Below are positions 18,001-21,000 of a stretch of 64,000 bases of DNA, one piece after another (position 1 is the stretch's first letter; each line of letters starts with the position of its first letter). Source of the stretch: Escherichia coli O157:H7. GTDB taxonomy: Bacteria; Pseudomonadota; Gammaproteobacteria; Enterobacterales; Enterobacteriaceae. The position numbers are program-made. The DNA is taken from the NCBI RefSeq assembly GCF_013167455.1, contig NZ_CP038328.1; one strand, 5' to 3'.

Positions 18001-21000
18001 TGCCGTTTATGGATCGCATTGGTCGCAAGATCAATATGATGGAGCAAGTGCTCGATATCCCTTCCCAGGAAGTTATCTCGAAAGATAACGCCAACGTTAC
18101 CATCGACGCAGTCTGTTTTATTCAGGTGATTGACGCGCCACGCGCGGCTTATGAAGTCAGCAATCTGGAGCTGGCGATCATCAACCTGACCATGACTAAC
18201 ATCCGTACCGTGTTGGGTTCAATGGAACTTGACGAAATGCTCTCTCAGCGCGACAGCATCAACTCACGCCTGCTGCGTATTGTCGATGAGGCCACCAACC
18301 CGTGGGGGATTAAAGTCACCCGTATTGAAATTCGCGACGTGCGCCCACCGGCAGAGCTTATCTCTTCAATGAACGCGCAGATGAAAGCGGAACGTACCAA
18401 ACGCGCTTACATTCTTGAAGCGGAAGGGATCCGTCAGGCGGAAATCCTCAAAGCCGAAGGTGAAAAACAGTCGCAAATCCTGAAAGCGGAAGGCGAACGT
18501 CAGTCGGCGTTTTTACAGGCTGAAGCGCGTGAACGTTCCGCTGAAGCAGAAGCCCGCGCCACCAAAATGGTGTCTGAAGCCATCGCCTCCGGTGATATTC
18601 AGGCGGTGAACTACTTCGTAGCGCAGAAATACACCGAAGCGTTACAGCAGATCGGTTCCTCCAGTAACAGCAAAGTAGTGATGATGCCATTAGAGGCCAG
18701 CAGCCTGATGGGGTCGATTGCCGGGATTGCCGAGCTGGTGAAAGACAGCGCCAACAAGCGGACTCAGCCATGATGGAGTTAATAGTCGTTCATCCACATA
18801 TTTTCTGGCTCAGTCTCGGCGGTTTGCTGCTGGCAGCCGAGATGCTGGGCGGAAATGGTTATTTGTTGTGGAGTGGCGTGGCAGCAGTGATTACTGGCCT
18901 GGTGGTCTGGCTGGTGCCGCTGGGTTGGGAGTGGCAAGGGGTGATGTTTGCCGTCCTGACGCTGCTCGCCGCCTGGCTGTGGTGGAAATGGTTGTCGCGG
19001 CGGGTGCGCGAACAAAAGCACAGCGACAGTCATTTAAACCAGCGCGGGCAGCAGCTGATTGGCCGACGTTTTGTGCTGGAATCTCCGCTGGTCAACGGGC
19101 GCGGTCATATGCGCGTCGGTGACAGTTCATGGCCTGTCAGCGCCAGCGAGGATCTCGGCGCAGGTACGCATGTTGAAGTCATTGCGATAGAAGGGATAAC
19201 GCTGATCATCCGTGCGGTCATCGCCTGATGCGACGCTGACGCGTCTTATCATGCCCGGAAGTCTGCGCCCGAATCGTAGGCCGGATAAGGCGTTTACGCC
19301 GCATCCGGCAGTCGTGCACCGACGCCTGATGCGACGCGGGCGCGTCATATCACGCCAAAACCGTAGGCCGCCTCCGCCATGTTAAATGTTAACTGGCATT
19401 GGCAATTTACTCTTCCCGGCCTTTACTCATACTTTTTTGGTCTTCATCCGGATAGTGTTTTTTTAGATATTCCAGGACGTTTTTATTGACCTTGTGTTGC
19501 GTATACACCCACCCTTTCCAGTAATCAGGCTGGTCCAGGTAAACTTCTGGCGGAATGGTGAAATCAGAAAGCGTTAACCATTCGGCTAACAGATCGGGGT
19601 TTCGTTTCTGTATCAACTGCAACAGCATAATCAGCGACATGGCAGAGGCAGGAGCCGTACTATCGCCGCTTAAATACTTCCACACTGTCGACCGGTTCGA
19701 ACGAAAAAGGATCGGTAGCAATGCCCGGTCCAGATTCATTTCATTAAAAATCTTCTCAAATTCATTCATTTAAATTTTCCTGCCTGGCGTAAACCTCTTA
19801 AAAATTGAGATTTATCAAAGAAACGCATTTTAGCACACATCAGGAACCGCTTCACGTTTAGTCCAGAAACAGAATTTATTTCGCTTATCAAAACAAGTCT
19901 TTACTCTTTTTTACATTGAAAGAGCACGAAATGATTTCCTTTTTTATTTATATAAGAAACCATTTTTGTTTCTTATTGATGGTGTTTACGCTTACAACAG
20001 ACAAAAATGCGCTTTACATCACACAAATGGCGGCGTAGATTTCGATTAAATTGCAACGCAGTTTATTTCTTAAAACAATATTATTTGTTTCTTATAGAAA
20101 CATTAGTACGACTTATTTTGAACAAGAGAAAATGAATGAAAACTGTAAACGTAGCTTTACTGGCACTCATAATTTCAGCAACATCCAGCCCTGTTGTTTT
20201 AGCTGGTGATACCATTGAAGCGGCGGCAACAGAGCTTTCAGCCATTAACTCTGGCATGTCGCAATCGGAGATTGAGCAGAAGATTACCCGCTTTTTAGAA
20301 CGCACAGACAACAGCCCCGCTGCGTATACCTATTTGACTGAACATCACTACATCCCTTCTGAAACACCTGATACCACTCAGACTCCCACTGTCCAGACAG
20401 ATCCTGACGCAGGACAAAAAACCGTTGCCGCTACAGGTGATGTACAGACAACTGCCCGTTATCAGAGCATGATCAACGCCCGACAGTCTGCGGTAACTGA
20501 CGCCCAGCAAACGCAAATTACAGAGCAACAGGCGCAGATCGTAGCCACACAAAAAACGCTCGCCGCGACTGGAGATACGCAAAATACCGCGCATTATCAG
20601 GAAATGATTAATGCCAGACTGGCGGCTCAAAATGAGGCTAATCAGCGCACCGCCACTGAACAAGGGCAGAAAATGAATGCGCTGACAACCGATGTGGCAG
20701 TACAACAGCAAAATGAAAGGACTCAATACGATAAACAAATGCAAAGTCTGGCGCAGGAGTCTGCCCAGGCACATGAACAAATTGACAGCCTGTCACAAGA
20801 CGTAACCCAAACGCACCAACAGTTAACCAACACCCAAAAACGGGTTGCAGATAACAGCCAGCAAATTAACACGCTCAATAACCATTTCAGTTCGCTAAAA
20901 AACGAAGTTGATGACAATCGTAAAGAAGCCAATGCGGGAACTGCATCTGCCATCGCTATCGCCTCACAACCACAGGTTAAAACCGGTGACGTGATGATGG

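Follow-up and report, generated by a model that had tools for sequence, protein, structure and literature searches.

E. coli REPs (group 2 of the E. coli REPtron) are imperfect palindromes, about 30-40 nt long, whose stem has a conserved AA/GC mismatch; they are high-copy, chromosomal and extragenic. In BIME-2 arrays such as REP325 (yjdM/yjdN), y and z2 units alternate with short linkers in a 101-bp unit at a 3' location and the copy number varies between strains, while BIME-1 (RIP) joins z1 and y by a long L linker with an IHF site and is single-copy. The naRNA4 sRNA would be a discrete, HU-binding RNA of about 77 nt, a function that is disputed (bioRxiv 10.64898/2026.03.23.713779). By the published definition of a REP, GTAG lies 5' of the palindrome (PMC8266576, PMC3333891), and the published description of naRNA4 is that of a Z2-l-Y unit (PMC4550694). 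In E. coli some 60% of REPs lie between convergent genes and roughly 30% of the convergent junctions have a REP; these repeats act as dual terminators and stabilisers with a strong dependence on context (bioRxiv 10.64898/2026.03.23.713779). DNA gyrase binds and cleaves BIME-2 in vivo, and its cleavage sites are enriched there, chiefly in the y units (PMC6379681). REPs less than 16 nt from a stop codon lower translation according to Liang et al. 2015, in the summary given by PMC12306157.

The window analysed here is a stretch of 64,000 nt of the E. coli O157:H7 chromosome (NZ_CP038328.1, GCF_013167455.1), for which an earlier note had claimed REP/BIME clusters at 19222..19378, 52605..52750 and 59773..59885, each between convergent genes. 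The head motif GCCKGATGCGRCG with at most one mismatch occurred 9 times in the window, while 1.07 matches were expected by chance; none of 100 shuffles reached 9, and 8 of the 9 matches fell within the three clusters. The tail motif CTTATCMGGCCTAC with at most two mismatches gave 6 matches (0.40 expected), every one inside the clusters. Searches with nhmmer profiles for y and z2 yielded 8 significant REP units with E-values of 3e-14 to 2e-07, all inside the three clusters, and no further significant unit elsewhere in the 64 kb; the clusters also hold 2 fragments. The Rfam naRNA4 model (RF02564, gathering score 59.5), a covariance model of Z2-l-Y, aligned end to end at each cluster with 74.7, 87.1 and 74.7 bits. 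Motif enrichment, nhmmer census and naRNA4 matches placed the REPs where the note had put them, with a precision of a few bases. The note would have fallen with sequences that failed to match the REP consensus; the units aligned to the y/z2 consensus, and this alignment settles that the three sites are genuine E. coli REPs made of palindromic y and z2 units. The RefSeq annotation of the identical O157:H7 record has all three junctions as convergent (ybbJ/hyp120, copA/ybaQ and ybaL/gsk). The kind of element is already known, and its position between convergent genes is normal; 3 of the 8 convergent junctions in the window carry REPs. The coordinates are collected in Table 1.

Table 1. Positions of REP units, linkers and neighbouring features in the window
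Feature	Position	Strand	Basis and remarks
27-bp palindrome, cnoX/fetB convergent junction	16233..16259	.	alignment
ybbJ (NfeD family)	18770..19228	+	annotation, K-12 comparison
Cluster 1, first y-type REP unit	19223..19255	- (strand that would read GTAG-first)	nhmmer E=2.6e-11, profile positions 5-37 only; fold -15.5 kcal/mol
Cluster 1, tail-to-tail linker, first y / z2	19256..19275	.	alignment to other strains
Cluster 1, canonical z2 unit GTAGGCCGGATAAGGCGTTTACGCCGCATCCGGCA	19276..19310	+	nhmmer E=6.7e-13; hairpin -20.9 kcal/mol, z=-4.4, AA/GC internal loop
Cluster 1, head-to-head linker GTCGTGCACCGAC	19311..19323	.	alignment; resembles naRNA4 'l' linker
Cluster 1, second y-type unit, decayed	19324..19356	-	nhmmer E=1.6e-07, profile positions 5-37; -17.8 kcal/mol
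Cluster 1, truncated z2 fragment GTAGGCCGCCTCCGCC, array right edge	19363..19378	+	sequence, strain alignment, fold
hyp120, convergent with ybbJ	19407..19769	-	first gene of module A
Cluster 2, z2 unit	52610..52644	-	nhmmer, fold
Cluster 2, canonical y unit	52662..52698	+	nhmmer E=3.2e-14; -21.9 kcal/mol, z=-5.9
Cluster 2, second z2 unit	52711..52745	-	nhmmer, fold; 101 bp from first z2
Cluster 3, REP head fragment TGCCGGATGT	59773..59782	-	8 nt past ybaL stop
Cluster 3, y unit (GTAGGCATG variant)	59799..59835	+	nhmmer, fold
Cluster 3, z2 unit	59848..59882	-	nhmmer, fold; 14 nt from gsk stop

The units of 35-37 nt folded into a 7-bp stem, a 2x2 internal loop, a second stem of 4-5 bp and a tetraloop with -15.3 to -21.9 kcal/mol, in agreement with the E. 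coli REP definition (PMC8266576, PMC3333891). GTAG was kept in 6 of the 8 units (z2 of cluster 1, three of cluster 2 and two of cluster 3); in 6 of 8 it occurred together with the 7-bp stem, the AA/GC internal loop, the upper stem and the tetraloop (-15 to -22 kcal/mol). Both y units of cluster 1 lacked GTAG and matched the nhmmer profile from position 5 only. All three arrays are of the BIME-2 type, i.e. y and z2 alternating in orientation with a 101-bp period and without an IHF site. They share with REP325 the y/z2 units, the alternation, the short linkers (12-20 nt from the unit coordinates), the 101-bp unit and the 3' location, and copy number differs between strains here as well. The z units matched Z2, not z1, and z2 of cluster 1 has exactly the sequence of Z2 in the naRNA4 consensus. 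BIME-1 (RIP/RIB) was rejected. The inverted REP pair at a 3' junction is common to both types; however, the IHF consensus WATCAANNNNTTR had no match in any of the three clusters, no L linker was present, the z units are Z2, and the arrays are tandem and variable. In the window, TRF reported none of the clusters as a tandem array, the 101-bp unit being present there in fewer than 2 copies; the L009 array gave a period of 101 with 3.9 copies.

Clusters 2 and 3 have direct orthologues in K-12 at copA/ybaQ and ybaL/gsk, unlike cluster 1. At copA/ybaQ K-12 has exactly one more 101-bp y+z2 unit, i.e. 5 REPs compared with 3 here, which makes the site a clean worked example of BIME-2 copy number changing by whole 101-bp units. 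The z2 unit of cluster 3, identical in K-12, has two stem changes that compensate each other (GCCAGAT...ATCTGGC). A REP-containing megablast query hit chromosomes at 155,600 of 155,701 places with a median of 28-30 places per genome. The reading of the clusters as a sign of an enterobacterial chromosome was therefore borne out in the sense that REPs are a hallmark of Escherichia chromosomal DNA; the native context is confirmed, with little consequence beyond annotation. The further claim that they attest a chromosomal backbone was right for clusters 2 and 3, but cluster 1 lies inside a variable segment that is not shared with K-12. Because this segment varies between strains and 59% of E. coli genomes lack cluster 1, REPs are unreliable backbone markers.

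Cluster 1 (ybbJ/hyp120, 19222-19378) departs from a typical BIME-2 in two respects. While 7 of the 8 units in the window are extragenic, its first y unit overlaps the last two codons of ybbJ, so the array is not strictly extragenic; and 2 of its 3 full units are without GTAG. The head of the first y unit, GCCTGATGCG, includes the ybbJ stop TGA (19226-19228), and the last Ala codon (GCC) and the stop of ybbJ come from this REP head, giving a C-terminus ...AVIA* compared with ...AVSS* in K-12. The + strand tail of this unit reads CATGCCCGGA, not CAGGCCTAC, and CTAC is retained there in other strains. The linker between this unit and z2 has a similar counterpart, ...GGAAGTCTG(C/T)GCCCGAATC, farther along the L006 and L009 arrays, where it recurs in the later units. 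The second y unit, 101 bp from the first, has a weakened stem. The decay of cluster 1 in O157, with two y units lacking GTAG and weaker stems, fits neutral decay as well as function. Module A, which follows at 19379-21862, comprises four genes of lower GC, the adhesin cargo.

The earlier note had put cluster 1 exactly at the boundary of a ybbJ-cueR insertion and suggested that it took part in, or marks, the junction. Comparison with K-12 confirmed that cluster 1 lies at the boundary of the K-12-different segment. Identity between the two sequences is 97-100% up to 19200, but 13 of the 28 positions in 19201-19228 differ, the REP head beginning at 19223; K-12 homology starts again with the cueR stop codon (21863). 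The haplotype breakpoint is inside ybbJ at about 19201. Nearly all genera sampled outside Escherichia lack cluster 1. It is also absent from the K-12-type junction, which was found in 3205 of 5426 complete E. coli genomes (59%), is at least 99% identical across them and has the stops of ybbJ and cueR abutting; the REP-type junction is present in about 41%. The latter is common to every other Escherichia species sampled. The ybbJ tail ...GTCATCGCCTGA followed by a REP occurs in E. albertii, E. whittamii, E1V33, MOD1-EC7003 and all non-K-12-type E. coli, and the fusion of y-REP head and ybbJ stop is present in E. albertii, E. whittamii and two other Escherichia species. L004, E. albertii and E. 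whittamii have lost part of the first y unit. Copy number at the locus ranges from 1 to 4 y/z2 pairs across lineages, with 1 in O145 and CE10, about 1.5 in O157, about 2 in L006 and E. whittamii, 2.5 in MOD1 and 4 in E1V33, where TRF gave a period of 101 and 3.9 copies.

Because all other Escherichia sampled have the REP-type junction and the K-12-type is so uniform, the K-12 state may be derived within E. coli; the polarity is more complex than an insertion in O157. Three further tests were negative. The original ybbJ tail, whose survival would have pointed to an insertion into ybbJ, does not survive beside cueR at the hypX end, where only the TTAA|TCA stop-stop abutment is common. A deletion chimera of the insert does not account for the 28-nt tail, as its central part has no match in any Escherichia insert. 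Import of the K-12-type haplotype from outside the genus is unsupported as K-12 cueR is no outlier, being 94-96% identical to other E. coli and 86-88% to E. albertii. The divergence between K-12 and O157 in the last 28 nt of ybbJ is saturated, which the reading favored below does not account for.

We consider it unlikely that the REP of cluster 1 took part in the ybbJ-cueR insertion as integration target or recombination substrate. Such a role has precedents, as IS1397 and IS621 are documented to target REPs, which are also found at recombination junctions (PMC1525189), and TnpA-REP in vitro cleaves and recombines BIMEs, acting on CT sites of iREPs and linkers (PMC3333891). The locus shares with REP-targeted insertion and REP-mediated rearrangement that the REPs adjoin a strain-specific segment: the array lies next to the difference from K-12, the indel of module A (E. 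albertii, L004) and the L011 deletion, which ends 4 nt past a y CTAC. In addition, by our own reading of the sequences there is a microhomology of 8 of 12 positions between TCGTCTTAATCA of K-12 and TCGCCTGATGC of the REP type. On the other hand, none of the 3205 E. coli genomes has a REP at the empty site, and the search for y/z2 REPs at the ybbJ junction was negative in every non-Escherichia genus sampled. The unoccupied sites, with a ybbJ-cueR gap of 0 bp in K-12 and of -47 to +5 bp in other genera, most of which have the genes abutting or overlapping, are free of REPs and hence show no REP target that would predate the segment. In contrast to an IS1397 or IS621 insertion, the segment showed no IS, integrase, transposase or target-site duplication and no REP interrupted by or split across it; its right end is the cueR stop codon without a REP half. 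Taken together, none of the marks of an attachment site, i.e. a REP at the empty site, a split or duplicated REP, a recombinase or an IS, was found at ybbJ-cueR. The haplotype breakpoint lies about 20 nt upstream of the REP, and four rearrangements of the region are located away from REPs (the O157 hypX deletion, the internal hypX deletions of L004, the L008 deletion and IS4 in CE10). Finally, the REPs occupy most of a short spacer, so that coincidence is expected. Since the empty site has no REP and in Pseudocitrobacter module A, the adhesin cargo, sits at another site free of REPs, cluster 1 is only a descriptive marker of the junction; the causal part of the suggestion found no support.

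With three indel boundaries coinciding with array edges, some REP-promoted recombination may have occurred. In a bolder version, the array edges would be active breakpoints, TnpA-REP-catalysed or hairpin-promoted, that repeatedly remodelled a ybbJ-cueR hotspot; one event would have captured the REP head as C-terminus and stop of ybbJ, and translation of QmcA/YbbJ would have become REP-dependent in about 41% of E. coli and the other Escherichia sampled. We regard this version as improbable.

We rather favor, with considerable confidence, the view that these BIME-2 arrays occupy 3' regions between convergent genes as a putative 3'-end element and gyrase site, and that cluster 1 is as old as the genus and passive at the junction. 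By analogy with other REPs, from which the functional statements for these sites are transferred, the arrays most likely serve as bidirectional 3'-end elements (terminator/mRNA stabiliser) combined with a gyrase site. According to published REP work the transcribed hairpins would be partial terminators in both directions and block 3'-to-5' mRNA decay, and at the DNA level the y units would be preferred gyrase sites. No intrinsic terminator was found on either strand of the ybbJ/hyp120 spacer, and the region folded better than shuffles (z=-2.6 and -3.3). In cluster 1 a y-REP head fused to the end of ybbJ at the edge of the variable segment, supplying the last Ala codon and TGA; the array later grew and shrank, and in O157:H7 it is partly decayed, with both y units devoid of the GTAG that TnpA-REP needs. 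REP and inserted cargo would meet at the junction because both must fit the same short gene-free spacer, the REP not being a catalyst. As the hairpin starts inside the stop codon, translation of ybbJ is predicted to be dampened via stalled terminating ribosomes. The REP-type and K-12-type tails are a natural allele pair for the published idea that stop-proximal REPs lower translation.

A less probable, yet serious, reading is that the arrays are selfish or neutral repeats without function here, which colonise non-coding spacers and drift, cluster 1 being in decay. The stem mismatches of the two GTAG-less y units, the copy number that varies freely among strains, the loss of the cnoX/fetB array from O157 and K-12 with only a scar remaining and the complete lack of cluster 1 in 59% of E. 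coli genomes are in line with this. Pairing in z2 of cluster 3 was, however, preserved through the compensatory double substitution, clusters 2 and 3 are conserved between K-12 and O157, the fusion of y head and ybbJ stop is kept across Escherichia species that are about 10% diverged in ybbJ, and REPs that were tested show measurable effects (bioRxiv 10.64898/2026.03.23.713779; PMC6379681).

That the clusters might encode discrete naRNA4-like nucleoid-associated sRNAs, which condense the chromosome with HU, appears very improbable. The idea would draw on the RF02564 scores well above gathering at all three clusters and on the nucleoid-condensing function proposed for REP325 (PMC4550694). Yet the model represents one generic BIME-2 unit and any Z2-l-Y unit matches it, so that a match shows the type of unit, not a distinct sRNA gene. 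Moreover, no promoter-like site was found near cluster 1, and a 2026 preprint describes REP325/naRNA4 as a local 3'UTR element without measurable nucleoid compaction (bioRxiv 10.64898/2026.03.23.713779).

The palindrome at the cnoX/fetB junction did not qualify as a REP (nhmmer E=1.6). Judged by alignment, it is probably what is left of a y+z2 array that other Escherichia have at cnoX/fetB.

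The three clusters were REP sequences beyond chance, as the earlier note had proposed: a pattern search, profiles of the unit types y and z2, and the Rfam model agreed. The REP head motif matched nine times against 1.07 expected, a count reached in 0 of 100 shuffles, and the GTAG-tail motif six times against 0.40. Profiles derived from canonical y and z2 units gave eight significant units in 64 kb, every one within the three clusters; two short REP fragments were found at 19363-19378 and 59773-59782. The Rfam model naRNA4, which by definition represents a single unit (Z2-linker-Y, 77 nt) of the BIME-2 array REP325 (PMC4550694), scored above gathering at all three clusters. 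The nucleoid-condensing role of naRNA4 is disputed (bioRxiv 10.64898/2026.03.23.713779), and the matches are evidence of unit type only. The published REP anatomy, i.e. GTAG, stem, conserved AA/GC internal loop, upper stem and tetraloop (PMC8266576, PMC3333891), was present with a 7-bp stem in six of the eight units, for which folds of -15 to -22 kcal/mol were predicted. The z unit at 19276-19310 matched the Z2 consensus exactly, and in cluster 3 a compensatory double change kept the stem of z2 paired. Both y units of cluster 1 were decayed, without GTAG and with weaker stems.

Orientation alternated unit by unit with like units 101 bp apart (19223/19324; 52610/52711). The same 101-bp period recurred in 3.9 copies at the cluster 1 locus of Escherichia sp. 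E1V33, and at copA/ybaQ K-12 has exactly one more 101-bp y+z2 unit than the window. No IHF consensus was found in any of the three clusters. Under the definitions of PMC3333891 the clusters are BIME-2-type arrays, not BIME-1; they are ordinary, already known BIME-2 REP arrays.

Gene calls were taken from the RefSeq annotation of the O157:H7 record (window coordinate = record coordinate minus 4,108,998), and a 5-kb stretch around the feature matched O157:H7 chromosomes of E. coli at 100% identity. The annotation bore out the convergent orientation claimed for all three junctions. REPs occupied three of the eight convergent junctions counted within the window, close to the E. coli genome-wide value of about 30% (207/704; bioRxiv 10.64898/2026.03.23.713779).

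Coordinates and setting of the REP clusters and of inserts between ybbJ and cueR
Feature	Coordinates	Setting or content	Source
Cluster 1	19222-19378	between ybbJ (+), ends 19228, and hyp120 (-), 120-aa hypothetical, 19407-19769	RefSeq annotation
Cluster 2	52605-52750	between copA (+), ends 52553, and ybaQ (-), starts 52768	RefSeq annotation
Cluster 3	59773-59885	between ybaL (+), ends 59764, and gsk (-), starts 59897	RefSeq annotation
Module A	19379-21862	hyp120, YadA-anchor trimeric autotransporter adhesin, lipoprotein, 67-aa protein	
Citrobacter inserts	L013-L021 and other Citrobacter loci, about 6450-9315	between ybbJ and cueR	

No intrinsic terminator was found on either strand of the ybbJ/hyp120 spacer, which leaves the REP hairpins as the sole strong structures in it. 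By analogy they likely function as 3' elements at these sites. REPs are described as acting, depending on context, both as terminators and as stabilisers of mRNA, with both genes of REP-bearing convergent pairs expressed more highly (bioRxiv 10.64898/2026.03.23.713779), and gyrase cleavage prefers BIME-2 y units (PMC6379681). According to the account of Liang et al. (2015) in PMC12306157, REPs lower translation when a stop codon is less than 16 nt away. The hairpin of cluster 1 starts within the stop codon of ybbJ; in cluster 3, 14 nt separate the z2 unit from the gsk stop.

The claim that the clusters belong to the chromosomal backbone held for clusters 2 and 3, which are orthologous to K-12 and differ from it by one unit and two SNPs, respectively, but failed for cluster 1. 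In K-12 the stops of cueR (514400) and ybbJ (514401) abut with no intergenic DNA, and cluster 1 is absent. Of 5426 complete E. coli genomes, 3205 had this K-12-type junction, in every case at ≥99% identity. The ybbJ-REP-hyp120 arrangement was found in 1403; the remaining genomes mostly had REPs followed by a degraded gene, hypX, as in strain 2547 (L004). All non-K-12-type E. coli, E. albertii, E. whittamii and Escherichia sp. E1V33 and MOD1-EC7003 shared a ybbJ tail ...GTC ATC GCC TGA fused to REP, followed by a BIME-2 array of one to four pairs. At most of these REP-type loci the TGA lies within an intact y-REP head; the first y unit was partly deleted in strain 2547, E. albertii and E. whittamii. 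Strain 2547 (L004 4270-4300) had lost 11 bp of this head; two direct repeats of CTGA apparently bounded the deletion, and a TGA stop for ybbJ stayed in frame.

Species-representative genomes were scanned once with YbbJ, giving 80 loci. Most non-Escherichia genera (Enterobacter, Klebsiella, Kluyvera, Lelliottia, Trabulsiella, Salmonella arizonae, C. sedlakii and others) have the two genes end to end or overlapping; the representatives checked in detail had spacings of -47 to +5 bp and yielded no y/z2 REP. For the Enterobacteriaceae as a family, abutment is the ancestral state and the insert the derived one. Many Citrobacter had inserts of at least about 2.9 kb there, as had a few genera besides (among them Phytobacter and Kosakonia). 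The one read in detail, of Citrobacter FP75 (L013), was unrelated to that of Escherichia, so the convergent junction is a hotspot at which insertion has recurred in several genera.

Sequence divergence makes the REP-type junction old within Escherichia: species whose ybbJ genes differ by about 10% have it in common, and its haplotypes are 4-10% apart. Across its 3205 genomes the K-12-type junction hardly varies, suggesting that it is a more recent replacement or loss. Identity to K-12 was 97-100% over 5 kb up to 19200 and broke off sharply: in the last 28 nt of ybbJ (19201-19228; K-12 locus L002 9402-9429) 13 positions differed, including all four synonymous third positions within the first seven codons. 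The K-12 YbbJ tail (…AVSS*) resembles those of Salmonella (…AVSST*) and Citrobacter (…AVSQ*/…AVSH*). Comparison with the insert sequence ruled out that the K-12 tail is a chimera of it, and K-12 cueR was no outlier among cueR sequences.

The cargo right of the array varied: hypX alone in E. albertii and strain 2547, module A plus hypX in O145, E1V33 and E. whittamii, module A without hypX in O157 and locus L006, module A with IS4 in CE10, and almost nothing beyond the REP pair in SCPM-O-B-8794. In this last strain (L008 6459-6620) the cargo is nearly all deleted with the y/z2 pair retained, and the cueR frame apparently continues into a hyp120 3' remnant, altering the CueR C-terminus. Module A has a GC content of 0.31-0.50 versus about 0.59 in flanking genes, and no mobility genes were found in it. 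A Pseudocitrobacter MAG (L085 2307-4842) carries the module between fetA and qmcA, with no adjoining REP, and Lelliottia (L064) carries part of it, so it moves as a cassette.

The suggestion that cluster 1 took part in the insertion was unsupported, since no unoccupied site checked carried a REP as possible target and elsewhere the cargo moves without them. At the right, the segment ends in the cueR stop codon with neither a REP half nor a duplication, no IS or recombinase is present in the segment, and the K-12/O157 breakpoint falls inside ybbJ (~19201), about 20 nt before the REP. REP-promoted recombination has precedent (PMC1525189, PMC3333891), and an array edge lies within 10 nt of three indel boundaries (K-12-type versus REP-type, presence of module A, and the MOD1-EC7003 deletion, which ends 4 nt past a y CTAC). 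Yet REPs occupy most of the short spacer where any gene-sparing event must fall, and four nearby events did not involve them. We consider such recombination at the insertion unlikely; the evidence is against a causal part of the REP.

A fourth REP-related convergent junction, absent from the earlier note, was cnoX/fetB (16205-16266). Its spacer is 62 bp in O157, O145 and K-12 and holds a 27-bp palindrome (16233-16259) that retains a REP end (CGCATCCGGCA). A y+z2 array occupies this site in E. whittamii, CE10 and strain 2547, with a partial third unit in the latter two; SCPM-O-B-8794 gave y and z matches at the same position, and Salmonella arizonae, Klebsiella grimontii and Yokenella weak z-like matches at about this position. 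The palindrome is probably an array-contraction scar.

Between cueR and ybaT lies a type I secretion island (22267-47222; HlyD, ABC transporter, TolC and a giant SiiEA/BapA-like adhesin whose gene is annotated as a pseudogene). K-12 (L002 8929-8994) and strain 2547 keep 22 aa of HlyD upstream of cueR, which indicates loss of the island in these strains and not its original absence. In copA, 50860-51300 and 51610-51900 had 92-95% identity to K-12 against 97-100% in the rest, which suggests mosaic recombination tracts. An Rfam sroB match (82 bits, 54040-54123, minus strand) in the ybaK-ybaP region is the counterpart of the sRNA that K-12 annotation calls ChiX, between the same two genes. Finally, qmcA contains a 33-bp tandem repeat at 18418-18506 (TRF; 2.7 copies, 73% match).
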